Below are positions 1,357 to 25,546 of a stretch of 42,009 bases of DNA, in pieces. Every line of letters begins with the position of its first letter. Position 1 is the first letter of the stretch. The position numbers were made by a program, and so were the translations under genes. The DNA comes from a virus. Its lineage: Duplodnaviria > Caudoviricetes. The notes below the pieces were generated by a model. It saw nothing but the letters and a program-made list of their open reading frames with translations. It was not told where the DNA came from and did not search any database. The stretch covers positions 1-42,009 of the IMG/VR virus record IMGVR_UViG_3300025018_000047. One strand, 5' to 3'.

Positions 1357-1357
1357 A

Positions 1358-1834
1358 TTATTGTTTATTAGTTTTAGTAGCAGAGATGATAATCTCCGAA
1401 TTTTTCTTTTCAAATTTTACACCTTCGTGCCACAAGCGTTGTTCTTTATCTGGAAAACCTGCCTGTTCTAAAATCTTAACTATCTCTTCTTGGTTCAAAT
1501 AGGTAGTTCGAGAATAATCTTTATTGAATTCTCTAACGCTTAAATCTCCTCCCAATAGACTGCGCAGGATATAATCGAAATCTTGTTCGATAATGTAAAG
1601 CTCTCCGCCTACTTTCAAAGCAGAAACGAAGTTCCTTAACATTTCTGGTATTCTGTCATACTCAGTTATCCCCAGAATACCGAAAGCATAAATAGCTCTA
1701 ACTGATCCTGGTTTCATTTTTAATCCATAGGGTGGCCGTGGATCTAAAACTAAGTCAACATCAGGAGTTTGAAATGGCCAAATGACCATTGCATCTTCAA
1801 CCTTTTTAATAGGTGAAATTTGTATTTTTAACAT
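1358..1834 (-). CDS. Class I SAM-dependent methyltransferase-like protein, apparently degenerate
   Basis: SVRAIYA...LKVGGELYI resembles the LKPGG segment of Methyltransf_11-type proteins; the GxG SAM-binding motif is absent. Confidence 0.6.
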   Translation of the reverse strand: MLKIQISPIKKVEDAMVIWPFQTPDVDLVLDPRPPYGLKMKPGSVRAIYAFGILGITEYDRIPEMLRNFVSALKVGGELYIIEQDFDYILRSLLGGDLSVREFNKDYSRTTYLNQEEIVKILEQAGFPDKEQRLWHEGVKFEKKNSEIIISATKTNKQ

Positions 1835-2349
1835 ATATCTTTAGTTATGTTTATATTTACTAAATATTTATTTTTGAGAGATACCACCCAAGGGAAGTCC
1901 ACCAATGGACTACAATTACTATTCTCATCATATGAATAATGAGACCTAATAGTTTTGATCTTAAACTTATTAGTGAGGAGCTCGAGCACATGAGCAGTTA
2001 ATTTGGCCACTTCTGGACCTGGGTATTTATCAAAATATCTCCCCACTAACTCGATATGAATCGAGCCTTTATTAATACCTTTAGTAGAGGCTTTGCCTTC
2101 TTTTTTTATTGGAGTAAATAACCAAATACTATCCTTTGAAATAAATAGATGGGGCCCTGCTTTCCATCCTCGTGATTCATATAATCTCCAATAATGAAGC
2201 ATTGATGCGCTATTTTGCCATGACTCTATAGGGCTAGAGGTGTGATGCAAAATAATCCTATCTATTTTCCTATCAAATATCCCAAACTTCATCTCATCGA
2301 TGTAATCTTGGAATGCCTTCAGGGTCATTTTTCGATTAAGAATTTTCAT
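1828..2349 (-). CDS. N-acetylmuramoyl-L-alanine amidase (Amidase_2 type)
   Basis: IILHHT, HLFI, SIHIELVG, SH...C zinc-ligand pattern; probable start at MKILNRK. Confidence 0.8.
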   Translation of the reverse strand: MKILNRKMTLKAFQDYIDEMKFGIFDRKIDRIILHHTSSPIESWQNSASMLHYWRLYESRGWKAGPHLFISKDSIWLFTPIKKEGKASTKGINKGSIHIELVGRYFDKYPGPEVAKLTAHVLELLTNKFKIKTIRSHYSYDENSNCSPLVDFPWVVSLKNKYLVNINITKDIC

Positions 2350-2350
2350 A

Positions 2351-3112
2351 TTAATTTTTACCATACACCTGGTTTTCAAGAGAAAATCCCTCTTCGCGGC
2401 CAGATAATATGTCATTAAATTTAATTAGTTCATTACCAAAATCCGATTTAGTATGCACTGCCGTTCCTTTCCTTTTCTTCCATTTAGCTGCATACTTAGG
2501 CCAAAAATCTATATAATAATCACAAGTTTCTTCGAAATGCTCAACTGATAAACCTTTCCCAAAATGCTTAACTATTCCGGCCACTACTATTTTACAGTCC
2601 CCGGGAAGATCTACGATTCTTTGATCAGGTTTGTTATAGCGCAGATATGGAGAATTTCTAAAGAAGAAAACTATTGTCCTAAACTCTGGTCCAACCCACT
2701 CTCGCTTATTGTGATCAGGCTCGTCTCGATCTTCTGGGGTAATGTAAATATCATACAATCTGCAAGCGATGGCTCCTACTTTACGATCGAACAAAAGCTG
2801 CCAGTCATCGAAATAAAGTCTTTCATCGGCATCGAAATAAACAAACCAATCATCATCTCCGGCATCTTCTTGAGCTCTTTCAAGCGCTCTTTGTCTAAGT
2901 AGCCATTCTGATTTCTCTCTGTCCGGATCCCAATGCTCTACCTCCTGCACGCTTTTTACAGCTGGGTGAGCTCTACATATCGCGACTGTGTCATCAGTGG
3001 AGGCATCGTCAACGATATAGATGCCACCGGTGCAAACTTTGCCCCAATGGTCTAGGGTCTCTTTTATTATTTTAGATTCATTTCTGATCTTAGAAATTCC
3101 TAATATTCGCAT
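2351..3112 (-). CDS. Glycosyltransferase family 2 (GT-A)
   Basis: IRNE, IVDDASTDDT, and the DxD motif FDADE. Confidence 0.92.
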   Translation of the reverse strand: MRILGISKIRNESKIIKETLDHWGKVCTGGIYIVDDASTDDTVAICRAHPAVKSVQEVEHWDPDREKSEWLLRQRALERAQEDAGDDDWFVYFDADERLYFDDWQLLFDRKVGAIACRLYDIYITPEDRDEPDHNKREWVGPEFRTIVFFFRNSPYLRYNKPDQRIVDLPGDCKIVVAGIVKHFGKGLSVEHFEETCDYYIDFWPKYAAKWKKRKGTAVHTKSDFGNELIKFNDILSGREEGFSLENQVYGKN

Positions 3113-3116
3113 AATT

Positions 3117-3458
3117 TTATCTATTAATTTTTATTCTTCTTATTTCTCCATCCCAATCTTTTTTAGGGTATCGCTTTTTTAAGTCATCGAGATCTGCTCT
3201 CCCAATAGCAATCAGTTTAATCTTGTCATTTACCACCTTAGAATTATGAGCGCTAGGATATTTGCTCTGGGCCGAATGCTCGCTTTCTAGAAGAGGGCAG
3301 TAATTCCAGGGCTCATTTATCTGCTTACCAGCGTATATCCACGCATGATGTATCACGATTCTATCATTACTGGTTGGTGGCATCTTTGAAAGGCAGCTTC
3401 TTTTGAAATAAAAGTCACTAGCTATGAGTAATCGATGTTCAGGTGGGATTGGTCTCAT
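3117..3458 (-). CDS. HNH-like small nuclease-fold protein, degenerate zinc ligands
   Basis: IVIHH...N..PL...H pattern. Confidence 0.45.
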   Translation of the reverse strand: MRPIPPEHRLLIASDFYFKRSCLSKMPPTSNDRIVIHHAWIYAGKQINEPWNYCPLLESEHSAQSKYPSAHNSKVVNDKIKLIAIGRADLDDLKKRYPKKDWDGEIRRIKINR

Positions 3459-3459
3459 A

Positions 3460-4485
3460 TTAACTAATTAATGAATTGGCAATATCTAAGAACTTCTTAG
3501 CCGCTACTTTAACATCGTGCTCTTTTTTAATAATAGCATAGGTTTCATCTACTGATTCCTGATTCCATGCGGCATCAATTTGAGCAATAATCTCTTCTGC
3601 GCTAAATAAAGGATTCATTAAATCCTCAGCTCTTTTTGATGCAATATCATCAACGAATTTTCTCCCCGAGAAATTAGTAAGTTTTAACACTTTGTGACTA
3701 GCCCCATTAATTACTCCGCCAGTGCCCCAACGGCCATGCACAACCCCAATTTTACCGGCACAGACCCCTTCCATTACTGATCGGCCCATACCAAATACAA
3801 TGTCAGCTTCTTTGATTATTTCATCGGTTTCGTATGTGGTGGCGAAATTAGCGCCAATGCCAACAAATTTAGCCTTATAGTAATTAGCAACCTCTTTAAT
3901 AATCTTATTGATATCGCTTTCTACGCCCCAATAGTTAGAACTTACTAAAATTGTGCTTGGTTTTTTAGGTAACTTTCCTTGTTTTTTGAATCTATTTAGA
4001 TCAAAGAAGTTTCTTATTACCACTGATTCAATATTATAAACTGATTTTAATAGTCCCTGGACCTCTTCTGATACGGCCACATACTGCTCGACTATCATAT
4101 CAGTTACTGGATGCTCTGGATAAATCTCTCCAGTTTCAGGATTTGAATGTAATATTCCATGGCAGATAGCAATTATTGGAAGATTAGGGAATTTTTGGCG
4201 GACCTCCTTTGTTCTATCATAATGAGCTCCAATTGCTACATCGAAGTTACCAATATCTTCCACGAGAATGGGGTTAAACGGCTCAATTTGGCCACTTTCA
4301 TGCGTGGAGAGACTATCAACGCATTTTACTCCAATGCCTTCCAATTTGGCGGCTATGAGGCCTAAATGGGGACTATAAGCAGTAACTTCGTGTCCAAGGC
4401 GCTTTAGCTCGGTGGCTAGAGTGAGCGTGTAGGTTTCACTTCCAGCTAAAAGCGAAAGTGTATTATTGAATAAAAGAATTTTCAT
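3460..4485 (-). CDS. Glycosyltransferase, GT-B fold (GT4-like)
   Basis: MKILL...AGSETY...L...LKRLGHEV N-terminus; VAVSE, IRN, ADIV..GRS..E motifs. Confidence 0.88.
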   Translation of the reverse strand: MKILLFNNTLSLLAGSETYTLTLATELKRLGHEVTAYSPHLGLIAAKLEGIGVKCVDSLSTHESGQIEPFNPILVEDIGNFDVAIGAHYDRTKEVRQKFPNLPIIAICHGILHSNPETGEIYPEHPVTDMIVEQYVAVSEEVQGLLKSVYNIESVVIRNFFDLNRFKKQGKLPKKPSTILVSSNYWGVESDINKIIKEVANYYKAKFVGIGANFATTYETDEIIKEADIVFGMGRSVMEGVCAGKIGVVHGRWGTGGVINGASHKVLKLTNFSGRKFVDDIASKRAEDLMNPLFSAEEIIAQIDAAWNQESVDETYAIIKKEHDVKVAAKKFLDIANSLIS

Positions 4486-4492
4486 AAGTTTA

Positions 4493-4684
4493 TTATTTAT
4501 TTTCATTAGAGAACATGAATTTTGTTTTTGATAGAATATCCATTAATTTTCTAAACTGAGGTAACGGCAACCATAGTTTATTATTAACAAGGTCTCCGTT
4601 CTCTATCTCAATACTACCATTGTCATTATGATTTTCAAATTTTATCGTTATCCCATCAATGCTGAAAATTTGCTGTTTTAACAT
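4493..4684 (-). CDS. Hypothetical protein (63 aa)
   Basis: ATG with AT-rich context downstream of a terminator; fills the gap in the operon. Confidence 0.55.
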   Translation of the reverse strand: MLKQQIFSIDGITIKFENHNDNGSIEIENGDLVNNKLWLPLPQFRKLMDILSKTKFMFSNENK

Positions 4685-5130: not shown

Positions 5131-6294
5131 TTATTGTTTTAAGTTCCAATGGATAGCATGAGCTTTGGCAGCTTGTTTAACTTCCATTGTATATTCGCCA
5201 ACGATCTGCCAGTTCTCAGAATCACCAGTTTTAGCCAGTTTCTCTAAGAAGAATGAGCGACCTTGTAAAGGTTTGATCATTATTCTGGAAGAATCAATAA
5301 CGATAGCTACATCGGAAGGAATCCAACGATCTACAACTACGCGTAAGCTGATACCAAGGTCGGAAACGAATTCCTCGACAGTGAAGCCAGCGCGGCGAGT
5401 GTCCATGGTAGATCTGCGATACTCTTTATCGAAGGCAGAAATTTTCTGCTTCTGAGCACCACCGACAATTACCATATCAGGGCTACCACCATCATCCCAG
5501 ATCTGCTTGATCATGGCGTTTAGAACGCTAGGAACAAGGGTTTCTGCGGTGGAATTGGTATTACCGCTAGAAGCGTGCTTGATATAATCAATCAAACCTC
5601 CCATGGTGCCGTAGGTGCCGTCAACTACATTAGCTGCGGCTCGAATGCCCATGATAACAGTGCGATCCAATTCTCTGACCAATTCGCGCATGCGCTTATC
5701 GATCTGATAGGTATCTTCAGCGCTGATGCCATTATGTTCAATAGCTAGTGCTGTGCCTGATAATCTGACACCCTTTGAGAAAATCTGGGTGTAGTTATAG
5801 CTGCGAGGTCTGGCTACTGACTCATCTTTAGGACCAGACATGCCTTGAGGGCGTGGGTTAGAGATGATGTCATAGACAGCAGTTGCTCCGTGAGCTTCAG
5901 CGGAAGTTCCGCCATAACCACGAGTAACAGTTGCAGATACACCACTTACAGCGGTAACTTGCAAAACTTCGAACTTACCTGAAAGTTGATCTTTTAATAA
6001 GGTGCCTGCAGTAACGCGACCAGCGTGGGTGGTGCTAGTTAGAACCAAAGCGGATCCGGTAGCGGAAACAGCTGATTCTAAAATTCTGCCGGCAGTTACA
6101 GTCACCGGATTTAACTCATCCTCATCCCATTCGTGCTTAGTTTGAGTTACCGGTTTGCCTTCACTGGAGAATCCTAAGGTTGATAAGACATCAGAATCAT
6201 CCAATAAAATGGCATCGACCATCTGATCAAGACTCAGAATGTATGTTGCACTCTGGTCATAGGAAGTGGTCATTCCTGGGGTTTGTAAAGCCAT
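5131..6294 (-). CDS. Major capsid protein (SU10/DUF5309-like HK97 fold)
   Basis: TKHEW.EDEL, NYTQIF, MGGL, F.SDLG, LAKTGD...Q.VGEYT.EVK motifs; follows the scaffold gene. Confidence 0.9.
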   Translation of the reverse strand: MALQTPGMTTSYDQSATYILSLDQMVDAILLDDSDVLSTLGFSSEGKPVTQTKHEWDEDELNPVTVTAGRILESAVSATGSALVLTSTTHAGRVTAGTLLKDQLSGKFEVLQVTAVSGVSATVTRGYGGTSAEAHGATAVYDIISNPRPQGMSGPKDESVARPRSYNYTQIFSKGVRLSGTALAIEHNGISAEDTYQIDKRMRELVRELDRTVIMGIRAAANVVDGTYGTMGGLIDYIKHASSGNTNSTAETLVPSVLNAMIKQIWDDGGSPDMVIVGGAQKQKISAFDKEYRRSTMDTRRAGFTVEEFVSDLGISLRVVVDRWIPSDVAIVIDSSRIMIKPLQGRSFFLEKLAKTGDSENWQIVGEYTMEVKQAAKAHAIHWNLKQ

Positions 6295-7468: not shown

Positions 7469-10400
7469 TTATTTTTGTTCATAGATAATTGGGGCTACAA
7501 TGTTATACCATTTTAATTTTTGGTTATTGTCCATTCTCTCAAATACGCGCTGCAATATGCCCTTTTGATAAGAATCTAGTCTATCGGCTGGATTAAAGTA
7601 TAGAGAGTTTTCAACATAGATTTCATTGAATTTTTCAAAGTCTCCTTTGACAAATGCACTCATCGCTTCTTCTTCTTGCAGTTTTTTCTTGTTTTCTACT
7701 TTGTTTATCTGATCGAGCATATCAAATTGCTTTACTCCTTCAATAGTATCAAATCCCATTGCATACATCAATAACTCACCATAACTTATAGGTCTTATTA
7801 GTTTTCCGTTAGCCGCTCTTAGAGGGAAGGCTTTTTCTCCGGTTGCTGGATCATATACTGGAATTCCTTCTTCATACTCTTTAACTGATGACAATAATTT
7901 CTCCCATCTCTGCTTACCCATACCTCCGGCAACACCTAAGAATAGCTTCAAACTTCTAGTAATTTCTTTATAGTTCTCGTTTAATGCTGATGTCATATTA
8001 CCAACAGCATTGGCGGCCCCTTCGGTGGCCAACATACCTAATCTCACCATAGGACTGATTGGCACTGATACTGGGCCAAGGCCAATCCATTTAGAGGCAT
8101 CTATTCCTAGCTCTTCTTCAAAAGACTTCTTAACATTAGCGCTCATTCCTAACATTCTAATTAATTTATCCCATTGCTTCCTAACGACCCAATCTCTTAA
8201 AAGAGTAGTATATCCCCAAGTAAAGAGAGTAAATTGTCCAAGTGCCTTTCCTCTTAATCCATGATGGAAGGCAGCGCCGGATCCTTTTCTATAGCCGAAC
8301 TGTAAAGCATCAATCGTTTCTTTAACAGCTAACTCTTTAGCTTGAAATACAGAATCTTTTGTCCCTTTCTTTAGTAGCTCATCTAATTTTTTTCTGACTG
8401 TCTGGCTATATCCTGAAAAATTAATTTCTTGTAAAAATCCTTCATAATCTATTTTCCCTTCTTCAAGTAATTTATAGGCATTTTCAAATCTATCCAGTGT
8501 TGCTCCCATAGTAGCCGTTCTGTTAATAAGATCCGGAAATCCCTCAGATACCATCGAAGCCTGGTTTAGTTTTTTGTAATAATCAACTGCCTTTCCAATC
8601 GGACCCTGACCTAATGTTTCGCTTACCTCTGATCCATAAATCACACCAGACTGGACATTAAACCCTCGTTTTTTAAGCTCTGCGAATCCCTTTTTATTAA
8701 CCCACTTTGCAAAGCTTCTAAAATATTCTGGGCCAAACTCTGCATAGGGCATCACAAAAGCCTGCCCAACTAAGTTTCTAACTATAGGCATGAACCTTGG
8801 TAACCCTAAAGCACCGGCATACATATTGCTTAAAGCTAAACTGAGAGTTTGTTTGCTGATATTTTTAGGGACTATGCCATTTGTTTTCTTTGATAAATTC
8901 TCGCCCCATTTATTAAAGGCTTTCTCGAGATCATCTCTCCTCCCCATAACTTCCTGCAACCAGTCGCTAGTTCTATGTTTTATATTCTCTGGAGCCGCTT
9001 CAATAACCTTTACTGCATGCTCATATGGATCTTTCATAAATCTAACTTTAGCTACAGCATTATTATAAATCTGAGCTAATACTAGAATATCATCTTCCAA
9101 AACATTTAATTGTCCGGCTCTTTCATATTGGGCAAATACAGTTAGCTCGGCTGGGATTTCCTTTTCTTTGTATAAAAGATTAATACCTCCGGCTTTTCTG
9201 ATTTGAGGTAAATAGGTGCCAACCCAACGACTATAAGTTAATCCAAGCTCTTTGTTCTTAAATGAGTCCTGAAAGTATTTGATAAACCAATCACCAATTC
9301 GTGATAACTCCATTTTTACTTGTGGGCTAAGTGCCTCATTTTGCAAGATGCTATTTTTGTTTCCTTCAACATAACTTGAAATTAACCTTCTATCTTCAAT
9401 ATGCCTGTTTCTGGTATAACCGCCTAAAACCTCATCAAATTTTTGATTCCATTCATCTCTAAAAATTCTTGATAATCTGATAGCAGTTTCAATTGGTATT
9501 CTAACCTCTGTATCGATTGGAATAATTTTCCCAGCGTTCTCTGATAATATTTCAACATTAGACATCCAGGTGCGAGATAATTGAAAGAATGAATCAAATT
9601 TACTAACATCATATGGCTCTTTGGCCAGTTCTTTGGTGGGGAATGATCTAATTATTTCTGATACTCTATATAATTCGTCTTGAGTTAAGTTATAAAGATT
9701 GTCCTTACTTGTCAGTGTCATGGCCGTTGCTTGAACAACTGCTTCACTTAATCCTAAGTCAGCAGCCAAACCTATAACTTGATTTGCCTGTTTATCAGTA
9801 ATTGGCTTATCTTCAAAACCTTTAAGAGGCTTAGACATGATTGATGGTGGTTCTTGAAATTTATCCTGCGCTATCATGTTCGGATCTTTACGCGCCATTC
9901 TATTTCTAGTGAAGGGATCCACTAATCTCTTATCTGTAGTGGAGTATTCTCCCACTTTGAAAGTTTCTGGATTATATTTAGTGACTCCCTCAGCTGATTC
10001 ATACTGCCTAATAATATTTTCAAACTCGGCCACGCCAGCTTCTCTGCTAACATCGCTACCCATAAATTCTCCTCTTCCTTGTAGTTTAGTGATGTCAGAC
10101 TTAAAGTGGTTTTCTAATTGAGCTATGTTGCTAGATAAGCCTGATCCTGGATCAAATATAACAGCTCTAACTCCTTTTCCATCTTGAACTAATGTTTGAT
10201 AATTAAGACCAAACTCATCAAGTTTAGCGCGTAAATCTGCCTTAGTAATGTTATTTATTTTAGTAATGAAAAGTGAATCAGCACCACCGGGCTCAACCAT
10301 AAATGGGATGACTGATTTTTGCTTTCCAATCTTTCCTTTAATAGCAGTAGAATATCTTAGCTCGTCATAGCTATTAACTTTATCAATGACATTGAAGACT

Positions 10401-12316
10401 GAGTTTTCTGCACCATCAGTCCACACTCCTGTAGCATCGAAGGCCTGGGATGTATGACCTAATTGTTTATCCACATCTTCTCCAATCTTTCTAAATAAAA
10501 CCTGATTGCCTGATTCAGTTCTAGCCAGGGCATCTTCGAAAGTTAGGTTTTCTTCTACATTAGGGCTATAAAATTGGAAAGCTTGAGCAGTCGAAACTCT
10601 TGAAGCAGTAGTGGCATCTAAAGATCCACGAGTTTCAATAGCTGTTAATGCTTTTTGCAATATTGATGGATCTTGGCTAGAGGTTAATCCTTCCTGGGCT
10701 TGTTTCCAAATAGTAGCTAATTCTTCTTTTGTTTTAACTGCACCTTGATTCAAAATTCTCATTTCACCCTCTGTTGGTAATTTAATAGCATCAAATCCAT
10801 TTTCTTGAGCCCAAGCACTTGCTGCCTTATACTCTTTTTCTAAATTTTGATTCATAAAATCAAGAATGCTTTTCTTACTAGATGCAGCTAATGCTCCTAT
10901 GTTGTAGTCATCTAAGCCCCTGTAGAGAGCTGATGGAAAATCAAAATAATTGGCTACTTTAGCATTGTTTGATAAAACGGCCTCGGTGAGATTACCACCT
11001 CGTTGTTTAATAAATTCATCAGCTATACTTTTACTGGTGGAAAAAGATCCTCCATCTTTAATGCTTCCTCGATAAATAGTAGTGCCTTGTGCTTGGACAA
11101 AATCATCTAAACTACTATATTTTAAGGCTTGCTGAGTGATAGCTGATTGTCCAGCGGTTTCTATTCCTCCTACAGTAGATTGTGCGCTAGAGACTGGCAA
11201 AGCTGATCCGGTGGATAGGCTTCTATTAAAAAAGTTAGGATCATATTTTATGTCCTCTGACCTTACTTTTAATAATGGACCTCCTTCTCCTGGGACAACA
11301 TTTTTTCTACCAAAAACTCTCCGGGCTGAATCTAGGCCCATATTCCATAATGATTGTCTTTGCTGCACGATGCTAAGTTCTGCCAATCCGCTGCCTTTTG
11401 GTTTTAATAGTGCAAAGGTATTATTAGCGTTTCCCTTGTATTGTGAGGCAACTGAATTGGGGATTGGAATTCTTAATATGTCCTTGCTTTCCTTAAAACT
11501 ACTAACTTGTAAAATAGATCCTTCTTTAGTGGCCACTTCTGTGGCTGTCCCTTTTAATGGAAGTGGGGACTTCCCGGTGGTAGTTTTCAGAACAACATTT
11601 CTAGGTCTAGTTAATGTTCTAAAAATATCTGTTATAGGGGCTAATGCGATGAGCGTTTCGGATGCAGTTTCTCCGGTTGCTTTAACAGCGGCGAAGAACG
11701 GATTCATACCTAAGTCTCTACCTTCATCGTATGATAGACCGGCAGTTCTAACTTCTCCCAATACTGGGAAAGTTTGCTTATCTGGATAATCCCAAATATC
11801 TGTGCCGGTTAATTTATTAAGGCCCCTCCCAGTTAAATTAAAGGCAGATGATGCAAGATAAACTGGGGCTTTAGCAATATTTTTTGGTAGAGAGGCCACA
11901 AATCTGGCGGTTCCTTTAGCTGCCCTCCAGGCTAATCTTGGTCCAGATAAAAGATCGCTTGTGACTTGTTGTGTTCTAGTCATTGCTTCATATTCCTCAT
12001 TCGATACTCCAGATAGCTGAGCATGCAAACCTCTACCAATATCTTTAATATTTTCTTTGGTATCTAATCCCCAGTTAGGTAATGATTTTCCTAAAATAAA
12101 CTCAGCGGTGACTTGAGGAATATAAGAAATAGCCGGCCGTTGAGCCTGCTTGGTATAAAATTCTGTCTCAGCCCTACCTATGGCAGACCTTAGATTTCGC
12201 GCTACTTGGTCGCTATTAATACTACCAGCGCTTGGTTGCGCCGGCTGAGGACTGATAGTTTGAACTGACTCCTTGTCATTTATTCTATTTTCGAAGTAAC
12301 TTCCTTGAATAGCCAT
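7469..12316 (-). CDS. Large internal virion/ejection protein of polyvalent type, with ART-like and SAM-lyase-like domains
   Basis: 1615 aa, mainly helical, third of three large genes; internal YRG/SFS/EGE motifs and GVWTD-ENSV-KQKSVI motifs. Confidence 0.7.
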   Translation of the reverse strand: MAIQGSYFENRINDKESVQTISPQPAQPSAGSINSDQVARNLRSAIGRAETEFYTKQAQRPAISYIPQVTAEFILGKSLPNWGLDTKENIKDIGRGLHAQLSGVSNEEYEAMTRTQQVTSDLLSGPRLAWRAAKGTARFVASLPKNIAKAPVYLASSAFNLTGRGLNKLTGTDIWDYPDKQTFPVLGEVRTAGLSYDEGRDLGMNPFFAAVKATGETASETLIALAPITDIFRTLTRPRNVVLKTTTGKSPLPLKGTATEVATKEGSILQVSSFKESKDILRIPIPNSVASQYKGNANNTFALLKPKGSGLAELSIVQQRQSLWNMGLDSARRVFGRKNVVPGEGGPLLKVRSEDIKYDPNFFNRSLSTGSALPVSSAQSTVGGIETAGQSAITQQALKYSSLDDFVQAQGTTIYRGSIKDGGSFSTSKSIADEFIKQRGGNLTEAVLSNNAKVANYFDFPSALYRGLDDYNIGALAASSKKSILDFMNQNLEKEYKAASAWAQENGFDAIKLPTEGEMRILNQGAVKTKEELATIWKQAQEGLTSSQDPSILQKALTAIETRGSLDATTASRVSTAQAFQFYSPNVEENLTFEDALARTESGNQVLFRKIGEDVDKQLGHTSQAFDATGVWTDGAENSVFNVIDKVNSYDELRYSTAIKGKIGKQKSVIPFMVEPGGADSLFITKINNITKADLRAKLDEFGLNYQTLVQDGKGVRAVIFDPGSGLSSNIAQLENHFKSDITKLQGRGEFMGSDVSREAGVAEFENIIRQYESAEGVTKYNPETFKVGEYSTTDKRLVDPFTRNRMARKDPNMIAQDKFQEPPSIMSKPLKGFEDKPITDKQANQVIGLAADLGLSEAVVQATAMTLTSKDNLYNLTQDELYRVSEIIRSFPTKELAKEPYDVSKFDSFFQLSRTWMSNVEILSENAGKIIPIDTEVRIPIETAIRLSRIFRDEWNQKFDEVLGGYTRNRHIEDRRLISSYVEGNKNSILQNEALSPQVKMELSRIGDWFIKYFQDSFKNKELGLTYSRWVGTYLPQIRKAGGINLLYKEKEIPAELTVFAQYERAGQLNVLEDDILVLAQIYNNAVAKVRFMKDPYEHAVKVIEAAPENIKHRTSDWLQEVMGRRDDLEKAFNKWGENLSKKTNGIVPKNISKQTLSLALSNMYAGALGLPRFMPIVRNLVGQAFVMPYAEFGPEYFRSFAKWVNKKGFAELKKRGFNVQSGVIYGSEVSETLGQGPIGKAVDYYKKLNQASMVSEGFPDLINRTATMGATLDRFENAYKLLEEGKIDYEGFLQEINFSGYSQTVRKKLDELLKKGTKDSVFQAKELAVKETIDALQFGYRKGSGAAFHHGLRGKALGQFTLFTWGYTTLLRDWVVRKQWDKLIRMLGMSANVKKSFEEELGIDASKWIGLGPVSVPISPMVRLGMLATEGAANAVGNMTSALNENYKEITRSLKLFLGVAGGMGKQRWEKLLSSVKEYEEGIPVYDPATGEKAFPLRAANGKLIRPISYGELLMYAMGFDTIEGVKQFDMLDQINKVENKKKLQEEEAMSAFVKGDFEKFNEIYVENSLYFNPADRLDSYQKGILQRVFERMDNNQKLKWYNIVAPIIYEQK

Positions 12317-12321
12317 ATTTA

Positions 12322-13692
12322 TTAGGCAAAATAATTCTTAACAGCATTTATTCCTGACTGAATAGTTCTTTTAGCGGTTGGGATTACTCCGGAATCTGCC
12401 TTGGCACTAGGTTGCTGTGGCGTTCTAAAAGCCTGAGATCTATCTCGAGGGGAAGCAGCCGGAGTGGGGTTAGACATCGATGATTGTGGTAGAGGTTGGG
12501 CTGGGGGATTAAATGGATTATCTAATCCGAAGTTCATCTTTACTGGAGATCCTAACTCAGTAGCCGGAGCCATGCCCATACCCTGATCAGGTTGTATTGG
12601 AGCTAAGACATCAACAGTCTCATCAGCTCTATTCATAAGAGATGCTTCAATCGGTTCTGGGAGATTAAAGATGTTATCTTCAATACCTAGATTTTCTGGG
12701 GTGGCGTTTAGATACTTAGTATATCCGCCATCTTCTCGGCGTTTATACATCGTGCCACCAACTCCTCTGGCCCAAGAATTCTTAGGTAGATAGCTCTGGA
12801 CTGGCACTTCTTCGCTAGATAAATTAACGAATGTCCCAGCTTGGCCAACAGTATGTTTAGATTTGCCTCCTTTAGTGTCTGGTGTTTGAACATCAGATTT
12901 TAATATATTTGTCTTAAATGATCCTGGGTTATCTGGGTCTGGCATTAATAAGTCGGCAGCTTGGAAAATTTTATCGCCTAATACGAAGAAATTTTTTCCA
13001 TCTCTTTTAGTATTAACTTTGCCATAAACTTGAACTCCATTGATCATGCCGTTAGTTTCAGCATAACCTGATTTCGAGCCATACCTAGCATATTCAATAT
13101 CTACTATTTCTCCATTATTATTGGTGGTGACATAAGCAGCGTAGCCTGGGAGAGGGTTACTAAAATCTTGGTTATTAGAAATGGCTTCATTCATTGATGA
13201 GTTTTCTCTATACCTAGCCATTGCCTCCATTAACTCATTTTCATATTGCGTAGTATCTTGGCCAACATCTCTGCGGCGATCAATAGTTTCTTGGAGATCC
13301 ATGATATTACTTTCATAAACATCGACCATAGTCTTGGTCCACTCAGCTGGGTTATTGCCAAAGATTAAATTATTCTGATAGGTAGTATTTTTATTGCTAT
13401 CTGCCATTCTTCCTAAATCATCAGATTTTTCAAATTGGCCAACTGATTTTAGTTTTTCGTAACTTGAAATTTTAACATCATAACCAGATCTCTGGTCAGC
13501 TGTGAGACTCCCACTCATCTGGATTTCTCTTGCCTTCTGTATCAGAATATCATAATCACCGGGTGATAAATACCCGTCTTTAGCTAAATCGTTTTCTAAT
13601 ATTTGTAATTGATCTGCTAACATTCCAACTCCAGTTCCTCCTTTTTTAGTTTGAAGCGCTGGGTTTAGAAATGATACATTAAAAATAGCCAT
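12322..13692 (-). CDS. Putative internal virion/ejection protein
   Basis: 456 aa; helical N-terminus and P/Q-rich tail; part of the large-gene trio. Confidence 0.55.
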   Translation of the reverse strand: MAIFNVSFLNPALQTKKGGTGVGMLADQLQILENDLAKDGYLSPGDYDILIQKAREIQMSGSLTADQRSGYDVKISSYEKLKSVGQFEKSDDLGRMADSNKNTTYQNNLIFGNNPAEWTKTMVDVYESNIMDLQETIDRRRDVGQDTTQYENELMEAMARYRENSSMNEAISNNQDFSNPLPGYAAYVTTNNNGEIVDIEYARYGSKSGYAETNGMINGVQVYGKVNTKRDGKNFFVLGDKIFQAADLLMPDPDNPGSFKTNILKSDVQTPDTKGGKSKHTVGQAGTFVNLSSEEVPVQSYLPKNSWARGVGGTMYKRREDGGYTKYLNATPENLGIEDNIFNLPEPIEASLMNRADETVDVLAPIQPDQGMGMAPATELGSPVKMNFGLDNPFNPPAQPLPQSSMSNPTPAASPRDRSQAFRTPQQPSAKADSGVIPTAKRTIQSGINAVKNYFA

Positions 13693-13693
13693 A

Positions 13694-15565
13694 TTATTGT
13701 AGTTTTAGGTAAATATCTTGACCGGACCTTATTACTTTACTTTCAACAACCTTAGGGTCCTTATATTGTTGCTGTAGTTTAGCCCAGGAATCTCCTGTTA
13801 ATTTTTCTCCAACAACAGACTTAACTCCAGACTTTAGAAATTTATCTGTGCCTTTGGTAATAATATCTTCTGGTCTGTAATATTTTAATAAATCTGGGCT
13901 AGCGATTCTTTCGCCAACTTGCTGGGTTGGTTGATTGCTGGCAATCTCTGAGGTATTAATTGGAGATCCTTTTGATATCTGGTTAATATTTCCGACTGTT
14001 TGAACTGCATCAAAGCCTTTGCCAGTAAATTGCTTAAAAGTATTTTCATCCCAAGCTCCAGTAAATGGTCTTAGAGCTCCACCTTCGTATTTATAAACAG
14101 TTCTATCATTGGCAGTTTTGTATAATTCTCCTTCCTTCATTTCTGGAACATTGAATTTACTAGCTAGAGTTTTATTTACCGTTAGCGGTGAGGTGTCTCC
14201 AAATTCTTGTTTTGCTGCGGTGGTAGAAAGATTAGTAACAATATCCGATGCTTTTTGGGTGGCTAGTTCTTCTGGTGTAACTGTAGCTCCGGCACCTGAT
14301 TTAATAGCCTGCTCCATAGCCATTTGGCTGCTTATTCCTGGATTGCTAGACATAATAGCTGACATAGTCCCTAAAATCTGGCTGACTTGATCTTGCTTTT
14401 CTTTAGCGGCTGAACTAACTATCTTCTGATAATTTAAGGTTTGATCTACGCCATAGGTATCTTGAATATAGGCTAATTCTTTAAGCGCTTTATTGGCATC
14501 TAGTTTAGTGGCAAATTCATTAAGAATCTTAGAACCTCTCAATTCGGCCGTGGCTGTAAGAGCTTTCTGTTTGTCTTGATCAACGCGCTCCATGTAAGGG
14601 GCTACTTCTGGCCTATCTTTTAGAGTCTCATACCAATTAGCAACATCCTTGAAGGTGTCGTTATTCAAAATTCCCCTAGTATCTTTGTAGGTTAGTTTAT
14701 CATTTAGCTCTTCTTGGTATCTGGTAAAGAATCCATTAGCTGATCTATCGTTTAGATACTCCCCACGCTTGAGGTCCCAAAATTGTCTAGCTGATTCATA
14801 CCTGGTGCCCCCAATAGTGATTGGAGTGTTGGCATCAGCTTGCTCTAATTGATTATTGAATTCGTTAAGTAAAGCGGTAGCTGAGTTACCGGTCATAGTG
14901 GCCACTGAGAAATTCATCAAAGTATTACTAATACTAGCCTCAGTTTTAGCCTTGGTTAAAGTTTGCATTTGTAAATCAAGCAAGGCAACATAGTCATCAT
15001 TGCCGGCTTTTAAGGCTTCGACTCTAGTAGAATTAACATCATTTATTTGTTTATCAATAATATCTAAGTCTTTATTTTCGGCAGCATACTGAGTGTTATA
15101 TTGGAGAGCATTTTTTCTCTGCTCGTAAAGTTTGCCTTTTAATTGGCTAATATTTTCTCTAATATTACTTTGAATATTTATATCAGTGGTCCTAGAAAGA
15201 GTAGTATTTAACCAGTTAATAGTTGTTTCAATCGATTGCACGCCAGCATTAAGATCACTTAATTGTTCGAGATATTTATTAGTAAAGTCTTGCTGTTCGA
15301 TGCGATCTTTCAAAGTTGAAATAGCATTTTTTATTCTTATCCTTTCATCCTTATCACCGGTCTCGACTCTTTTCATTTGATCCTTTCGATATTCTAATTG
15401 CTGTTCTAAAGTGAGGTTATCTTCTAGAACCGCTTTATTAAATCTCTGCTCGTCTTCTAAGTTTTTTCTAACCCTATTTTGGGTAATTAGAAGTATCTGG
15501 GACTGAATAAATTGTCCTAGGTTTGTAGCAATTTGTTTTTTCTCACTGAGCTTTTCGTAGGCCAT
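13694..15565 (-). CDS. Putative internal virion/ejection protein (coiled-coil)
   Basis: 623 aa, Q/E/K/N-rich and helical; follows the portal gene. Confidence 0.55.
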   Translation of the reverse strand: MAYEKLSEKKQIATNLGQFIQSQILLITQNRVRKNLEDEQRFNKAVLEDNLTLEQQLEYRKDQMKRVETGDKDERIRIKNAISTLKDRIEQQDFTNKYLEQLSDLNAGVQSIETTINWLNTTLSRTTDINIQSNIRENISQLKGKLYEQRKNALQYNTQYAAENKDLDIIDKQINDVNSTRVEALKAGNDDYVALLDLQMQTLTKAKTEASISNTLMNFSVATMTGNSATALLNEFNNQLEQADANTPITIGGTRYESARQFWDLKRGEYLNDRSANGFFTRYQEELNDKLTYKDTRGILNNDTFKDVANWYETLKDRPEVAPYMERVDQDKQKALTATAELRGSKILNEFATKLDANKALKELAYIQDTYGVDQTLNYQKIVSSAAKEKQDQVSQILGTMSAIMSSNPGISSQMAMEQAIKSGAGATVTPEELATQKASDIVTNLSTTAAKQEFGDTSPLTVNKTLASKFNVPEMKEGELYKTANDRTVYKYEGGALRPFTGAWDENTFKQFTGKGFDAVQTVGNINQISKGSPINTSEIASNQPTQQVGERIASPDLLKYYRPEDIITKGTDKFLKSGVKSVVGEKLTGDSWAKLQQQYKDPKVVESKVIRSGQDIYLKLQ

Positions 15566-15569: not shown

Positions 15570-17309
15570 TTATGGAGTTATTGCCGGTGCGGGCATAGCA
15601 CCTGCCGCGGCTCTTTGGTTAGCTCCGGCGATTGCCCCTTCAGGGCTAGCACTAGCGCCGGCTTGATTAGGTGAAGCTGGTAATCCAGCTCCTCCCTCTC
15701 CTTCAGTTGGCGGCATAGATGCCTCCGGATTATTCATTTGCAAAAGTCCAGGCTGTCTGGCAGTCTGTGGTCCAAGAATAGGATCTGATAAGTCTCTCTT
15801 CATGCGCTTCTGTTCGATCTTAGGTTGAGGAATACCAAGGTTCTTCTGAGTAGTGGTAAGAGATTGAACGCCAGATTGTAATTTATTAAGTTCATCAATG
15901 ATATTTCTAAGCAGAGTGGAGATGATATTTACTTCATTGTTATAATCTCCCATGATAATTTCTTTCGTTTCTGGGTAGTATATTTCAAATAGTTTGAAAA
16001 TGTTTCTGTTTAAGCTGCGCAATGCTCTTTGGTATCGTTTGATTTTTGGAGAAATCTTCCTGATAACTGATTGCAGAGCCATCGCCATAGACCTCCCAGA
16101 GACTTGTCCTGACTGAATAGATGACATTAGCGACTCAGAAGTCCCAGTGACATCTAAAATTGCTTGACGGCGGCCTGAGACGAAATTAGAGGATGCGTAT
16201 GGATCTCCAGCGCGCTGAATTGGATCTAATTCTCCATCATCTGGCATATTAAAAATCTTAGACAAGCCATGGACCAATACTTCCATGCCGTCTAAGTTCT
16301 TGCCTTTCAAATTGATAGTGGAGAGGAATTTCAAAGCGTTAGCTAAATCGTTATTAACTCTAGTGTAAAATAATTGGGGATCAATAGCATCTTCAATATC
16401 AGACTTACCATAAGGGTGATTAGGGACATAGATATTTTTGATATATTCAAGCGGAACAAATTTCCAATTATGCCAGTAGTAATCTACTAACTCATCTTCA
16501 ATAAAAATAGCCATTATTTGATCAGTCCAGTATTCGTTGCGAGCAAGCATTGGCTGATAGGTTTGCTGGGAAGTGATATTTGGTTGGGAGCGGAAATTAA
16601 TTCTAGAGGCAGTTTTATATTTTTTTAATAAATCAGCTACTGGCTTACCTCTCTCTGCTAACTTCTTTCCATATAATCTCTCACACTTCATTGGCGAAAT
16701 AGCAGTGGTATCAATATAGCCATATAGCTCTTTGTAGTTTTCATCAAGGAAAATAGGCCTGATATTAGCAGGATTTTCTACATTGTAAAATTTAATTTTC
16801 CAATCTGCTTTTTTCTCGCTACCACCTTTGTCTAAAAACGGACCTTTAATAAAGGTGTCACCATAGGTGGAGCCAGTCTTTGATAATTCAGGGAAGATGA
16901 TTTCATCAGCATCATTATCATCATAGACTTTTTTCAAAAGTTTCTCTTTGAATTCTGCCTTCATTTCAAGTAAGTCATCAGACTCATCTTGGGAGGGGCA
17001 GTTAATTTCTACTGGGGCATCAAAGAGCAAAGATGAAAATGTATCAACCACTGTGGCACAATAGTTGTCAGTGCGCTGTGAAGCTCCAGGTGGTTCATCG
17101 TGATCCCATTGATCGCCGCGATAGAACTGTCCGAGTGTTTCATAGCCAACGAACTGCTTACCAGAAGATCCGCGCGTAGCACTTACACCATGGAGGCGGA
17201 AGTTAAGATCCTTCTCGGTTTCGCCTTTATGCTCGATGTATTGATTTTTTAATTCCTCCTCAAATCTTTTTTTATCTTGAGGGGACATGTCTTTTTTGTA
17301 TTCTAGCAT
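15570..17309 (-). CDS. Portal protein
   Basis: 579 aa after terL; FY.G.QW, YGD.F.K, W.FVP....N......PYG.SDIED motifs. Confidence 0.85.
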   Translation of the reverse strand: MLEYKKDMSPQDKKRFEEELKNQYIEHKGETEKDLNFRLHGVSATRGSSGKQFVGYETLGQFYRGDQWDHDEPPGASQRTDNYCATVVDTFSSLLFDAPVEINCPSQDESDDLLEMKAEFKEKLLKKVYDDNDADEIIFPELSKTGSTYGDTFIKGPFLDKGGSEKKADWKIKFYNVENPANIRPIFLDENYKELYGYIDTTAISPMKCERLYGKKLAERGKPVADLLKKYKTASRINFRSQPNITSQQTYQPMLARNEYWTDQIMAIFIEDELVDYYWHNWKFVPLEYIKNIYVPNHPYGKSDIEDAIDPQLFYTRVNNDLANALKFLSTINLKGKNLDGMEVLVHGLSKIFNMPDDGELDPIQRAGDPYASSNFVSGRRQAILDVTGTSESLMSSIQSGQVSGRSMAMALQSVIRKISPKIKRYQRALRSLNRNIFKLFEIYYPETKEIIMGDYNNEVNIISTLLRNIIDELNKLQSGVQSLTTTQKNLGIPQPKIEQKRMKRDLSDPILGPQTARQPGLLQMNNPEASMPPTEGEGGAGLPASPNQAGASASPEGAIAGANQRAAAGAMPAPAITP

Positions 17310-17313: not shown

Positions 17314-19005
17314 TTAGAAGTGTCTTTCGTTTATAGTGAAAGTTCTTGTAGCTAATTCTTTTTTATCTTTTACCTGAATAATATCTTTGGGATTACTGGC
17401 TAACATATTAAGGTCAAATACTTTGGTGCGATGCTTAGCGATTTTCTTTTCGCAATACCAGATTGCCATTCCAAGCGACATTACCTCATCTTGCTCTAGC
17501 TTTTTATCTTCCACTCGGTAATTTCCCATTTGTTCTTCAAGCTCTGGGATGACGAATGATCTGATTTTTCCAAATAACGGATTAAGCTCAGTGACTTTTC
17601 CGTCTTCGCTAGTTTTAACCTTTCTGTTATGGGTGAGAACTAGCACAAGATAGAATAACATTTCATCTTTAGGGCTTCTGGCCATCGCGAAGTCGTGCAG
17701 GTGTCTAACTTTCATTTCATGCAACATCTTGGAAATTATGATTCCTCCCATTGATGAGCTGTCGTGAACAATATCAGCATCATTGAAATCTACTTGCAAT
17801 ATTTTTAGTCTGGCTAAAGCGGCATAAGGGGACCCTCCTTTAATTGATTCTCTAAAGACAACTCGATAATGAACTCCATCTGCTGGTGGTTTCCCATCGA
17901 GGTAATTCATGAGCTCAGTGATATCAAGAATATAAATGACAGTAGGATCGCCAGTATCAGCAAAGCCCCAGTCAACTCCGATAACATAACGGCGGTTCGA
18001 TTCTCCCATAGTGAGCATTGGGTAATTCTCCCACATCTGATCAATAGCTGGTCCGGGGAATAGTTTAGCTCCAGATGATACGAAATCTCCGAAAGCAACC
18101 TGGCGATATTTCTCCTTGTCGGTTTGTTTAATCGAATCCAGAATCGAATTTTTCTCTTCATCTCCGATAAAGATATTGTTAGCAATTCCACCAATCATGG
18201 TGAAGAAACCATTTTGCAGTTTCATGCCGTATTTAACAATTCGCTGATAATAGACATGCGAAGGCTTATCTACCTCCGGGGTGCCAATGATATCCATTGG
18301 TCCACCGGTATCAAGCAAACGAGACTGGATTTTAGCTGGGAGCTCGGCTCTTAGATGAAGTGACTGGGGCGCTTCATCGTATGAAATGTAATAGAACTGC
18401 GTTCCGGCCAGAGAAGAGGCTTGATCTTCTCCGGTGGGCACACCTTTGATGGTGGCGTTGTTTGAAAATACTATTTCTCTTTTAATTTGTTTATGATCTT
18501 TGAGGAATGATTTAATACGGCAAGTGTTTCTAACTTTCTGGCCATTCCATTCATAGATCAGCTTATCATTGAAGATATCAACGATGTAACGATAGGCAGC
18601 ATCGACTTGCATGGAGTGAGGGGAGATGTTTAAGGTGCTGTATCTGATGTCTTTTATATATTCAGCTGGGCCACTACAACCTATCTTATAGAAATTATAC
18701 CATATATGCTTGACAGATGTCACGAAAGTTTTACCAAATCTGTTACCAGGAGCTAAAATATTCTTCAAAAATGGGTGCGCGAGTAATTTATCAATAGCTG
18801 GAAGAGGGATGCCGGCACTGAGTGATAGATCATAAGCTAATTCAATCTGAGTTTTGGTGGTGGTCCAAAGCCAAATTTTCTGTCTATTATGAAAATGTAA
18901 GCCTAAAAAAAACTCCCCAAAAAATACAGGGTCTTTTCTGCCTCGAGCGATAGCCAAAGCTAGATCACGGGGACTAAGATTTTGATTGTTTGAGGTATCT
19001 CGCAT
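17314..19005 (-). CDS. terL: Terminase large subunit
   Basis: Walker A GNRFGKT, Walker B ISYDEA, GTP coupling motif, RNase H-like GVDWG and a late D; start probably 19005 (alternative 19026). Confidence 0.92.
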   Translation of the reverse strand: MRDTSNNQNLSPRDLALAIARGRKDPVFFGEFFLGLHFHNRQKIWLWTTTKTQIELAYDLSLSAGIPLPAIDKLLAHPFLKNILAPGNRFGKTFVTSVKHIWYNFYKIGCSGPAEYIKDIRYSTLNISPHSMQVDAAYRYIVDIFNDKLIYEWNGQKVRNTCRIKSFLKDHKQIKREIVFSNNATIKGVPTGEDQASSLAGTQFYYISYDEAPQSLHLRAELPAKIQSRLLDTGGPMDIIGTPEVDKPSHVYYQRIVKYGMKLQNGFFTMIGGIANNIFIGDEEKNSILDSIKQTDKEKYRQVAFGDFVSSGAKLFPGPAIDQMWENYPMLTMGESNRRYVIGVDWGFADTGDPTVIYILDITELMNYLDGKPPADGVHYRVVFRESIKGGSPYAALARLKILQVDFNDADIVHDSSSMGGIIISKMLHEMKVRHLHDFAMARSPKDEMLFYLVLVLTHNRKVKTSEDGKVTELNPLFGKIRSFVIPELEEQMGNYRVEDKKLEQDEVMSLGMAIWYCEKKIAKHRTKVFDLNMLASNPKDIIQVKDKKELATRTFTINERHF

Positions 19006-19006
19006 G

Positions 19007-19612
19007 TTATAATTCGTTAGGATCAAATTGAACTACTTTTTCAGCTACTTTTTCTGGGGTGGGGTTTAACTCTTTACTGTCGTGACTAAAATCTTTAATT
19101 TCCTCTTCTTCTACTTCCCCATACTGAGCTCCTTGGAGCATGTCTTCGAACATAGTAGTTTTTCTCTTTTCTGCTTGGACTTTAGTGAGGGCAACCATAC
19201 GACTGTCACGCGCCTTCATTGCACCAAAAAGCCATTTCATTCTTTCTTTGACCGGAACTTGCTTTAGAATATCTGGATTATCAACTAACTCGTCAAGGGT
19301 GGCTTGGGAGATGGCCAAAATGTTTTTAATTGAATTGGTTTCCATTTCAGCTTCGGTTTTTTTCTTGTCAACAAATTTCTCAATAATGATTTCACGCTCA
19401 TTTCTGACCTCTAAAGCGAGTTTTTGTGCAAATTTATGCCAGTTTAGGTATTTGATATCTGGATCTAGGTCGATTACATAGGTTTTCCAAAACCCCCTTG
19501 ATGTCATATTGCCACCAAATTTATCATACTTTTCCATGATAGTAGCAAAGTGAGCTGATTTGGCCACTTTAGAATCGCTGCGGATTTTTGTGATGTCGGT
19601 CTGTTTTTTCAT
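19007..19612 (-). CDS. Putative terminase small subunit
   Basis: Helical 201 aa protein directly upstream of terL; first gene of the late arm. Confidence 0.65.
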   Translation of the reverse strand: MKKQTDITKIRSDSKVAKSAHFATIMEKYDKFGGNMTSRGFWKTYVIDLDPDIKYLNWHKFAQKLALEVRNEREIIIEKFVDKKKTEAEMETNSIKNILAISQATLDELVDNPDILKQVPVKERMKWLFGAMKARDSRMVALTKVQAEKRKTTMFEDMLQGAQYGEVEEEEIKDFSHDSKELNPTPEKVAEKVVQFDPNEL

Positions 19613-19620
19613 ATGCTAAT

Positions 19621-19649
19621 ATTATATAACAAAGTATGTCTTTCCACAA
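19621..19649 (-). promoter_or_regulatory. Promoter of the late arm, near-leaderless
   Basis: TTGTGG-17 bp-TATAAT; ATG lies 8 nt after the -10 box. Confidence 0.65.
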
Positions 19650-19668
19650 GTTACGCACAATTATCATA

Positions 19669-19697
19669 TTGACCCTATATTACAAAAATGCTAAAAT
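19669..19697 (+). promoter_or_regulatory. Sigma70-type promoter directed into the non-coding region
   Basis: TTGACC-17 bp-TAAAAT with TGn extended -10. Confidence 0.75.
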
Positions 19698-19762
19698 CGC
19701 AATTGTAAGAAATTAAAACAGTAACACTATGCTAAGGGAGCATAAAAGATTAATAGAGAAAC

Positions 19763-25060: not shown

Positions 25061-25546
25061 ATGAGAGAAAAACCAAAAGACATCACTTTCCACTATACTA
25101 ATGAAGTAATGGTTAAAGATTTAATAAAAACGCTTCCGCTCGTTAAAGGTGACACAATTTTAGATGCTGGAAGTGGTAAAAATAAGGTTTGGTATAAAAA
25201 TATACCGTTTGATTGTGGAAAATTTGAATGTGAATTAGAGGATGGGCAAGACTTTTTACAATATACTGAAAAATATGACTGGATAATCGGAAATCCGCCA
25301 TATCATATTGGATGGCAGTTTACTGAAAAGGCTGGTCAATTAGCAAATAAGGGAATAGCTTGGTTAGTAAATAATACTGAAATGAATAGCTTATTTACAC
25401 CACGAAGATTACAAATTATGTCTGATTATGGATTTAACATAACACATATAAAAGTGGTGGCTGATAAAAGATGGTTTGGTAGATATTATTTTTTAGTATT
25501 TGAGAAAAAGGAAGGATTTGTTAGCTGGGAAAGAAAAACTTATTAA
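25061..25546 (+). CDS. Small DNA amino-methyltransferase (N6-adenine type)
   Basis: ILDAGSG SAM-binding motif, DFL, and IIGNPPY catalytic motif. Confidence 0.85.
   Translation: MREKPKDITFHYTNEVMVKDLIKTLPLVKGDTILDAGSGKNKVWYKNIPFDCGKFECELEDGQDFLQYTEKYDWIIGNPPYHIGWQFTEKAGQLANKGIAWLVNNTEMNSLFTPRRLQIMSDYGFNITHIKVVADKRWFGRYYFLVFEKKEGFVSWERKTY

Follow-up and report, generated by a model that had tools for sequence, protein, structure and literature searches.

A probable relative of S-adenosylmethionine lyases carried as swappable cargo in a large late-cluster protein of a tailed phage

Why should a domain resembling a small stand-alone phage enzyme lie in the middle of a giant late-gene protein? 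The question is raised by a virus (Duplodnaviria; Caudoviricetes) whose record, IMG/VR IMGVR_UViG_3300025018_000047, is analysed here at its full length of 42,009 bases (the window); the record is complete, with direct terminal repeats and 38% G+C. The largest gene of its late cluster, a 1615-amino acid open reading frame (ORF) at 7469-12316 on the minus strand, contains at residues 577-775 (9992..10588, minus strand) a domain that resembles S-adenosylmethionine (SAM) lyases. A sequence-only reading of the window had proposed a SAM-lyase-like segment at 9998-10580; this corresponds to residues ~580-773, nearly the whole domain, and the segment is real, although that reading overlooked a second ferredoxin-like unit (residues 678-750) and a closing helix. 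The interpretation preferred here, tentatively and at a little short of an even chance, is that residues 577-775 are a swappable single-chain relative of the SAM lyases, carried in an injected late-cluster protein and cutting a scarce SAM-type molecule rather than bulk SAM. The fold by itself is suggestive and not conclusive, and the case is therefore built on the fold and the residues together.

The two motifs that had drawn attention to the segment both lie in the reading frame of the minus-strand ORF 7469-12316, with DATGVW starting at residue 627, ENSVF at 637 and KQKSVI at 665. A region search with the domain gave 12 relatives besides the 1615-amino acid protein, and a 12-sequence profile searched against 1.84 billion cluster representatives (clusters at 50% identity) matched 1,346 of them at E≤0.001, 1,072 at 1e-10 and 525 at 1e-30. 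Conservation was counted on 156 homologues (the best 150 of the 1,346 plus the region-search relatives; 11 are profile seeds), which share 27-65% identity with the query (median 34%) and whose carrier proteins are at least 800 residues long in 97 cases and under 400 in 32, some of the latter probably being contig fragments. Only E637 and Q666, at the positions that would correspond to the two catalytic residues of SAM lyases, are conserved in 156/156. They are followed by G747 and F672 (155/156 each), G630 (154/156), G661 (153/156), G635 (152/156), R758 and G753 (151/156 each), W632 and S584 (150/156 each) and D634 (147/156); residue 708 is Thr in 148 and Ser in 6, D722 is present in 146, residue 667 is Lys in 142 and Arg in 11, and the spacing from W to E is five in 148. 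The seed alignment showed no variation at the W, D, G, A, E or N of the main motif, and of these E alone remained unchanged among the 156, so the circularity of these counts is limited. The motif forms a hairpin, G630-V-W-T-D-G-A-E637-N-S639 (10400..10429, minus strand), with a loop much shorter than in known lyases, and Q666-K-S-V669 (10310..10321, minus strand) is a loop before strand 4 that appears equivalent to the lyase B-loop.

The domain has no meaningful match in Pfam, PHROGs or NCBIfam and none in 50,697 GenBank phage records, and in the ESM Atlas it meets hypothetical clusters only, below 0.9 and with low recognition. DUF3293, a possible relative, did not appear in the Pfam scans.

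The AlphaFold2 model of residues 577-775 (predicted local distance difference test score, pLDDT, 91.1; predicted template modelling score 0.88) consists of two tandem beta-alpha-beta-beta-alpha-beta ferredoxin-like units and a closing helix. Unit 1 (residues 577-677; 10286..10588), the predicted catalytic half, bears S584-P-N, G630, W632, D634, E637, Q666 and K667; unit 2 (residues 678-750; 10067..10285), a PII/CutA-like ferredoxin fold, is the predicted stand-in for a neighbouring subunit, as judged from T708, D722 and covariation; and the closing strand and helix (residues 751-775; 9992..10066) contain the conserved G753 and R758 and covary with unit 1 (all on the minus strand). When the model was compared with 48,161 solved chains, the first-ranked chain was the Svi3-3 SAM lyase 6zm9 (Z 8.6, root mean square deviation 2.9, 105 aligned residues, 19% identity), which upholds the proposal of a ferredoxin-like fold, Svi3-3 being the best or tied-best match. 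T3 SAMase is also present, with Z 6.5 (range 6.4-6.7) over ~120 residues that reach into unit 2, and a SAM-AMP lyase (AMP, adenosine monophosphate) with Z 6.3; unit 2 (model residues 103-176) matches PII, CutA and HisG C-terminal domains at Z 6.3-7.4. The top 17 matches in BFVD are targets of 772-1443 residues, and the named ones are uncultured-phage proteins. Comparison of unit 1 and unit 2 profiles was not significant, so the duplication is visible in structure only.

In the model G630 lies at the end of strand 2, E637 at the start of strand 3 and Q666 before strand 4. Judged from motif order and strand position, G630, W632, E637, Q666 and K667 would correspond to G56, Y58, E69, Q104 and E105 of Svi3-3, in which Gly56, Glu69 and Gln104 are strictly conserved and Tyr58 is bonded to Glu105; there the Glu and Gln grip the methionine amino group, and activity falls 4500-fold in E69Q, fivefold in Y58F and threefold in E105Q (PMC7877911). 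These Glu and Gln residues are also the sole ones structurally common to SAM and SAM-AMP lyases (PMC12255297). The domain is thus very likely homologous to the SAM lyases, and it likely works like a SAM-type lyase, membership in the T3 family itself being not demonstrated; the balance tips slightly towards the predicted activity as a lyase, be it on SAM itself or on a conjugate of it.

The second unit suggests how such a site might be completed. In Svi3-3 it is completed by Ser50 and Ile77 of the neighbouring subunit, and the SAM-AMP lyase also uses a neighbour's Ser50 (PMC12255297). In the domain studied here the Ser50-like position of unit 1 (622-627) has no conserved residue, and unit 2 lacks the Glu and Gln and retains T708 (10193..10195, minus strand) at the start of its second strand; this conserved residue is the predicted equivalent of the neighbour's Ser50. 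T708 was named as the Ser50 candidate ahead of the covariation test, which then placed it opposite G630. In that test (mean-field covariation, 212 rows, 18,721 pairs) the pairs 631-696 and 631-707 ranked first and second, and of 280 registers compared between strands of the two units the best sets strand 2 antiparallel to strand 2' with a residue sum of 1338 and G630 opposite T708; with the 156 rows not chosen by motif the same two pairs rank first and third. The pairing between Svi3-3 subunits lies 'around residues 51 and 55' and, if antiparallel, would place Gly56 opposite Ser50, just as G630 is set opposite T708 here. The closing segment covaries with unit 1 (e.g., 655-773 and 662-766). The two units are predicted to pack like two neighbouring Svi3-3 subunits; as the register in which they covary is the one found between such subunits, an active site formed within one chain is fairly likely. 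T3 SAMase, a monomeric nine-stranded barrel in its complex with MetK, is an earlier example of a site completed by a single chain (10.1101/2023.02.27.530186).

The differences from known lyases bear on the substrate. The spacing from the aromatic residue to the Glu is 5, as against 11 in T3 and Svi3-3, which leaves hardly any lid loop. In the SAM-AMP lyase the loop is displaced, since the loop of SAM lyases would clash with AMP (PMC12255297). A short loop with conserved basic residues may leave room for AMP, on which aromatic residues stack in 9GAB. The T3 family has Q-D in 41/41 sequences, versus Lys or Arg after the Gln in 153/156 homologues here. The sequence-only reading had raised this basic residue as a caveat, and it stands in softened form, given that Svi3-3 E105Q loses threefold only (PMC7877911) and that one orthologue, P0209, has Q-D. 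K667 also covaries with residue 633, the neighbour of conserved D634, and D634 may offset its charge. The P0209 copy (residues 396-575; E 4e-13), which occupies the same slot, is divergent and likewise made of two units, with G-V-W, E-P-S, Q-D and the unit 2 Thr, so the acid after Gln is a subfamily trait; this copy probably represents a sister subfamily nearer to canonical SAM lyases.

Within its carrier the domain is swappable cargo. The carrier has an N-terminal scaffold (residues 1-375; 11192..12316, minus strand) common to orthologues that lack the SAM-lyase-like domain, and a C-terminal, mostly helical scaffold (residues 780-1615; 7472..9979, minus strand; model pLDDT 62.6) whose orthologues are 40-76% identical. 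A search with the C-terminal scaffold gave eight other orthologues, two with a close copy of the domain, one with a divergent copy and five without it (scored as no match at E≤10); the domain is therefore dispensable for the scaffold. Of these five, one reaches 61% identity over the scaffold and another has hardly any insert. The closest of them, P0205, has at residues ~440-600 a different insert, whose G-G-W, D and Q-I-A-I-F-D motifs make it look SAM-lyase-like by eye; it has no significant alignment to unit 1. A second insert occupies the cargo slot of the window's protein (residues 385-575; 10592..11164, minus strand); it has no relative among the orthologues and homologues collected here, and ADP-ribosyltransferase (ART) is a lead only for it: its top ESM Atlas rows are ART-PolyVal at 0.89, under the 0.9 mark, and with a three-sequence ART profile it did not rise above 200 shuffles. 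By eye, ART-like inserts (Y-R/H-G, S/T-x-S, G-F/Y-D) occupy the cargo slot in the window at 10592-11164 (minus strand), in P0210 at 405-520 and in P0211 at 595-725; the Atlas lead concerns the window's copy only.

The company the domain keeps elsewhere is varied. Fusions to Zeta, Fic, 2H, XkdF protease and ART-PolyVal domains were seen in all four distant carriers among ten proteins scanned, and 15 of 33 long carriers scanned have Pfam partners, namely MuF, portal (2), LPD38 (3), Zeta (4), PI3/4 kinase (2), GNAT (2) and DUF7178 (2). Direct fusions to lambda- and Mu-type portal proteins were seen in P0045, P0057 and L098:4372-6894. The best 80 of 112 viral loci formed 55 clusters at 70% identity, in which the domain-bearing ORF has a median length of 1190 and reaches at least 700 residues in 42/55. 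Among their 176 neighbours (at most five large genes of the same strand at each locus, trimmed to 520 residues), 37/55 loci have one whose best match is to a terminase, portal, capsid, head protease or head morphogenesis protein; 8/55 have other virion-type matches and 10/55 none (one had nothing to scan). Residue conservation in these loci was left out of the evidence because they were chosen by patterns that hold W, D, G, E, Q and K. Short motifs of the type R-x(2-4)-G-R/Q-F, which we take to be possible head-loading tags, occur in 36/156 carriers (e.g., P0023, P0048 and P0138) compared with 0-6 in shuffles; they are absent from the window's protein. Packaging of the carrier in the virion is likely.

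A scan of GTDB genomes gave 16 loci with the domain. At seven of them, all in Acidobacteriota (L088:4216-4956, L091:5956-6651, L092:5758-6636, L094:5893-6633, L095:532-1323, L096:5911-6633 and L097:1638-2429), it adjoins a PolX-PHP gene, retains the G, W, E, Q, K and T, and has two conserved cysteines. These seven copies probably reflect one domestication with a single origin.

Several observations weigh against the interpretation given above. The Z of 8.6 barely exceeds the 7-8 typical for unrelated best matches. AcrB/CusA-type pore domains tie with 6zm9 (Z 8.5, 8.4 and 8.2; 6-12% identity, ~160 aligned residues), a second structural comparison has AcrB at 8.9 and 8.8 above 6zm9 at 8.6 and 6znb at 8.4, and Foldseek puts 6zm9 29th (E 2.1e-3), its 24% identity being the highest among the Foldseek matches listed. 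At the level of sequence, PF23780 matched 0/32 family members (the T3 control gave E 5.7e-42), no lyase turned up in the PDB, whether the domain or two profiles served as query, and profile-profile comparison was not significant with 41 T3-type sequences, or with T3 alone. In the predicted site a lysine at 667 replaces an acid and a W replaces Y58, and the lysine could repel the sulfonium. The top covarying trio is mostly in two states (D/R/R in 119 and A/H/H in 50 of 212 rows; V/R/Q in the window) and may reflect few events, and the pair 628-710 drops from rank 41 to 225 when the motif-selected viral rows are removed. As for the carrier, the count of 37/55 loci with head genes stands without a background rate, and neither by sequence nor by fold does the C-terminal scaffold significantly match a solved ejection protein; the PhiM1 ejectosome 8vb2 reaches Z 6.4 over 185 residues, the longest alignment among the matches listed, which is below the meaningful level for helical proteins. 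That the carrier is an ejection protein is probable from its gene position, size and helical content; the sequence-only reading was right to place the domain inside a large late-gene protein, and its further identification of that protein as an ejection protein finds support in position only. No Cas or CorA family was found among the 72 ORFs scanned, out of 86 at the 16 genome loci, although the CRISPR-corA location of cellular SAM-AMP lyases is not required of phage members. The main unexplained point is that the seven Acidobacteriota copies are stand-alone ORFs of 232-293 amino acids with, by eye, signal-peptide-like starts: because these forms look exported, a cytoplasmic substrate is a poor fit for them, which argues that the substrate may be met outside the cytoplasm.

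If the preferred interpretation is correct, the carrier would be packaged in the head and injected with the DNA, bringing in a ready-made counter-defence enzyme. Unit 1 would hold the amino-acid end of an adenosyl-sulfonium substrate, with E637 and Q666 binding the amino group, W632 stacking on the sulfonium and G630 packing on the ribose; T708 of unit 2 would give the adenine and ribose contact that Svi3-3 draws from the next subunit, and attack by the substrate's own carboxylate would release homoserine lactone and a thioether. With one chain forming one site, no trimer would be needed inside the 180-kDa carrier. Given the few copies that would enter, the short lid loop and the conserved basic residues nearby, the likeliest target would be a low-abundance SAM conjugate such as SAM-AMP, itself a scarce target (PMC10600005).

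The fold and residues would also fit a true SAM lyase that is injected before transcription and drains host SAM, disabling type I restriction and bacteriophage exclusion (BREX), as the sequence-only reading had it. A cell holds roughly 100,000 SAM molecules, and 4-8 injected copies working at 9.5 per second would cut 40-80 molecules per second and take 20-40 minutes to drain them without resynthesis. The copy number follows PhiM1, whose ejection proteins are tetramers or octamers (PMC11440229), and the rate is the turnover of Svi3-3 (PMC7877911). T3 SAMase does defeat both type I restriction and BREX, but it uses ~10,000 copies plus inhibition of MetK, plasmid-expressed Svi3-3 and Orf1 left BREX intact, and loss of SAM raises its synthesis (10.1101/2023.02.27.530186). 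The Q-D variant that P0209 carries in the same slot speaks for SAM draining and the phage's own SAM-using methyltransferase against it; on these grounds the claim of SAM draining is not supported, and we consider it improbable, a scarce SAM-derived target being more likely than bulk depletion, with no CRISPR link seen here. The copy-number problem would vanish if a SAM lyase acted late, when the carrier is abundant in the cytoplasm, and not at injection. Its gene is indeed in the late cluster, and the methyltransferase gene lies in an oppositely transcribed, presumably earlier block. A cytoplasmic late enzyme, however, has no need of a virion carrier, and both the repeated portal, MuF and head-protease fusions and the tag-like motifs (36/156 versus 0-6 in shuffles) point to packaging, which makes late action decidedly improbable.

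The domain could alternatively be a SAM-lyase homologue whose job has changed, binding an adenosyl ligand uncut or acting on some other small molecule, possibly in the periplasm during ejection. The W and K in place of Y and E, a lid loop six residues shorter in a class of enzyme that works by excluding water, the conserved basic residues K667, R758 and R/H707, and the nucleotide binding of PII relatives would all suit this, as would the exported-looking Acidobacterial forms that keep the G, W, E, Q, K and T. Yet the two invariant residues are just those Glu and Gln with which Svi3-3 grips the amino group of methionine, 4-8 copies of a stoichiometric binder would do little, and the seven exported-looking genes all occupy a single chromosomal position and probably go back to one origin; a changed job is unlikely, if worth serious consideration. 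Ferredoxin folds abound (3,818 chains at Z≥2), and the AcrB tie and the absence of sequence-level homology to lyases might be taken to mean that this is a generic ferredoxin-like pair with a chance resemblance to SAM lyases, serving as a structural or binding spacer. Invariant polar residues at matching positions would then be hard to account for, as would a domain that is dispensable in its scaffold and that survives intact both as a gene of its own and inside many unrelated carriers; a generic pair seems very improbable.

The domain can be set beside several characterised systems. Svi3-3 (6ZM9, 6ZNB; PMC7877911) has the same GlnB-type ferredoxin-like fold, the same order of Gly, aromatic, Glu, Ser and Gln, and a two-part site with a hydroxyl residue from a second unit, as predicted here. 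It is, however, a homotrimer of ~130-residue stand-alone subunits, in contrast to two units in one chain that travels as cargo of a 1615-amino acid protein, and it differs in Y58/E105 versus W/K, in an aromatic-to-Glu spacing of 11 versus 5, and in sequence (19% identity). The T3 gp0.3 SAMase (PF23780; 7OCK, 8BB1) shares the G-x-aromatic, E and Q and is a monomer in the MetK complex, but it completes its barrel by a short beta extension and not by a second ferredoxin unit; it is also the product of an early gene, made in ~10,000 copies, with an invariant Q-D and MetK binding, all unlike the domain described here. SAM-AMP lyases of type III CRISPR and the phage candidate AcrIIIB4 (9GAB; PMC12255297) likewise have a Glu in the T-loop, a Gln in the B-loop and an altered T-loop, and AcrIIIB4 is a fused phage form; they differ in being trimeric, in their longer T-loop (59-71) and, for the cellular ones, in their location in CRISPR-corA loci.

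The carrier recalls the phage polyvalent proteins (PMC5512222), large late-gene proteins with interchangeable effector domains among virion genes, whose partners MuF, portal, Zeta, 2H, ART and LPD38 also occur with this domain. Varied unrelated domains, the defining mark of polyvalent proteins, are found across the family; the window's protein has the variable slot, its second insert being a lead only. The main text of that paper does not mention S-adenosyl or SAMase, and its external LPD alignments could hold the domain unnamed; in the Pfam scans no LPD model matched it. Podophage ejection proteins such as the PhiM1 ejectosome (8VB2) resemble the carrier in being mostly helical and in that it is the largest of a three-gene block beside the portal; they show no sequence homology to it, and the 8VB2 fold match is below the meaningful level. 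In the literature covered, which did not extend to subscription papers and supplements, no account was found either of this family or of a SAM lyase in tandem or virion-borne form; PMC12839542 and 10.1101/2025.06.06.658234 mention SAM lyase in passing only.

For an unannotated domain met again and again in hundreds of giant phage virion proteins, the analysis proposes a biochemical identity that can be tested. It would bring a SAM-type lyase into the repertoire of injected polyvalent proteins, and would show that an obligate-oligomer enzyme can be converted into portable single-chain cargo. A few injected copies are not a plausible drain on SAM, so identifying the true substrate could reveal a scarce SAM-derived defence signal, and the 200-residue length and natural stand-alone forms suit easy expression and assay. 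The boldest extension, that more than 1,300 clusters are fused-subunit, split-site, single-chain lyases that are head-loaded and injected to destroy a SAM-derived immune signal (SAM-AMP or other), is unlikely as a whole; if true, SAM-conjugate signalling would be far commoner in bacterial defence than the described CorA-linked CRISPR systems.

The carrier gene lies in a late cluster in the order large terminase, portal, genes for 623, 456, 1615, 100 and 237 amino acids, and SU10-type major capsid gene; its position between the portal side and the major capsid gene marks the 1615-amino acid product as a probable internal virion (ejection-type) polyvalent protein, and this protein has no match in Pfam, PHROG or NCBIfam models. 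The portal (15570-17309; PHROG E 1.7e-12), the large terminase (17314-19026; PHROG E 1.5e-16) and the capsid gene (5131..6294; PF17236 E 1.4e-71) are on the minus strand. The 623- and 456-amino acid genes (12322..15565, minus strand) have no significant family match in Pfam and PHROG scans and are candidate smaller ejection proteins by position only. Viral contigs L003 and L004 repeat this late-gene order, including the same sizes for the two portal-side genes. The phage's own SAM-using methyltransferase, correctly noticed earlier, is at 25061..25546 on the plus strand (ORF 25061-25546); it matches phrog_799 at E 1.9e-11, has LDAGSG and NPPY motifs, and is an amino (probably N6-adenine) DNA methyltransferase and so a consumer of SAM.

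Directly downstream of the capsid gene, at 166-4506 on the minus strand, lie three glycosyltransferases and an amidase, possibly for virion glycosylation; the gene sizes here are the same in L003 and L004. No DNA polymerase, helicase or integrase was found among the 36 and 14 window ORFs scanned against PHROGs. On the plus strand, 27655-31957 contains a Cas4-like exonuclease, an SbcC-like ATPase and a RusA-like resolvase. Between the divergent gene blocks, ~2.3 kb at 19613-21937 holds doubtful short ORFs only and is likely a control region or the genome end.

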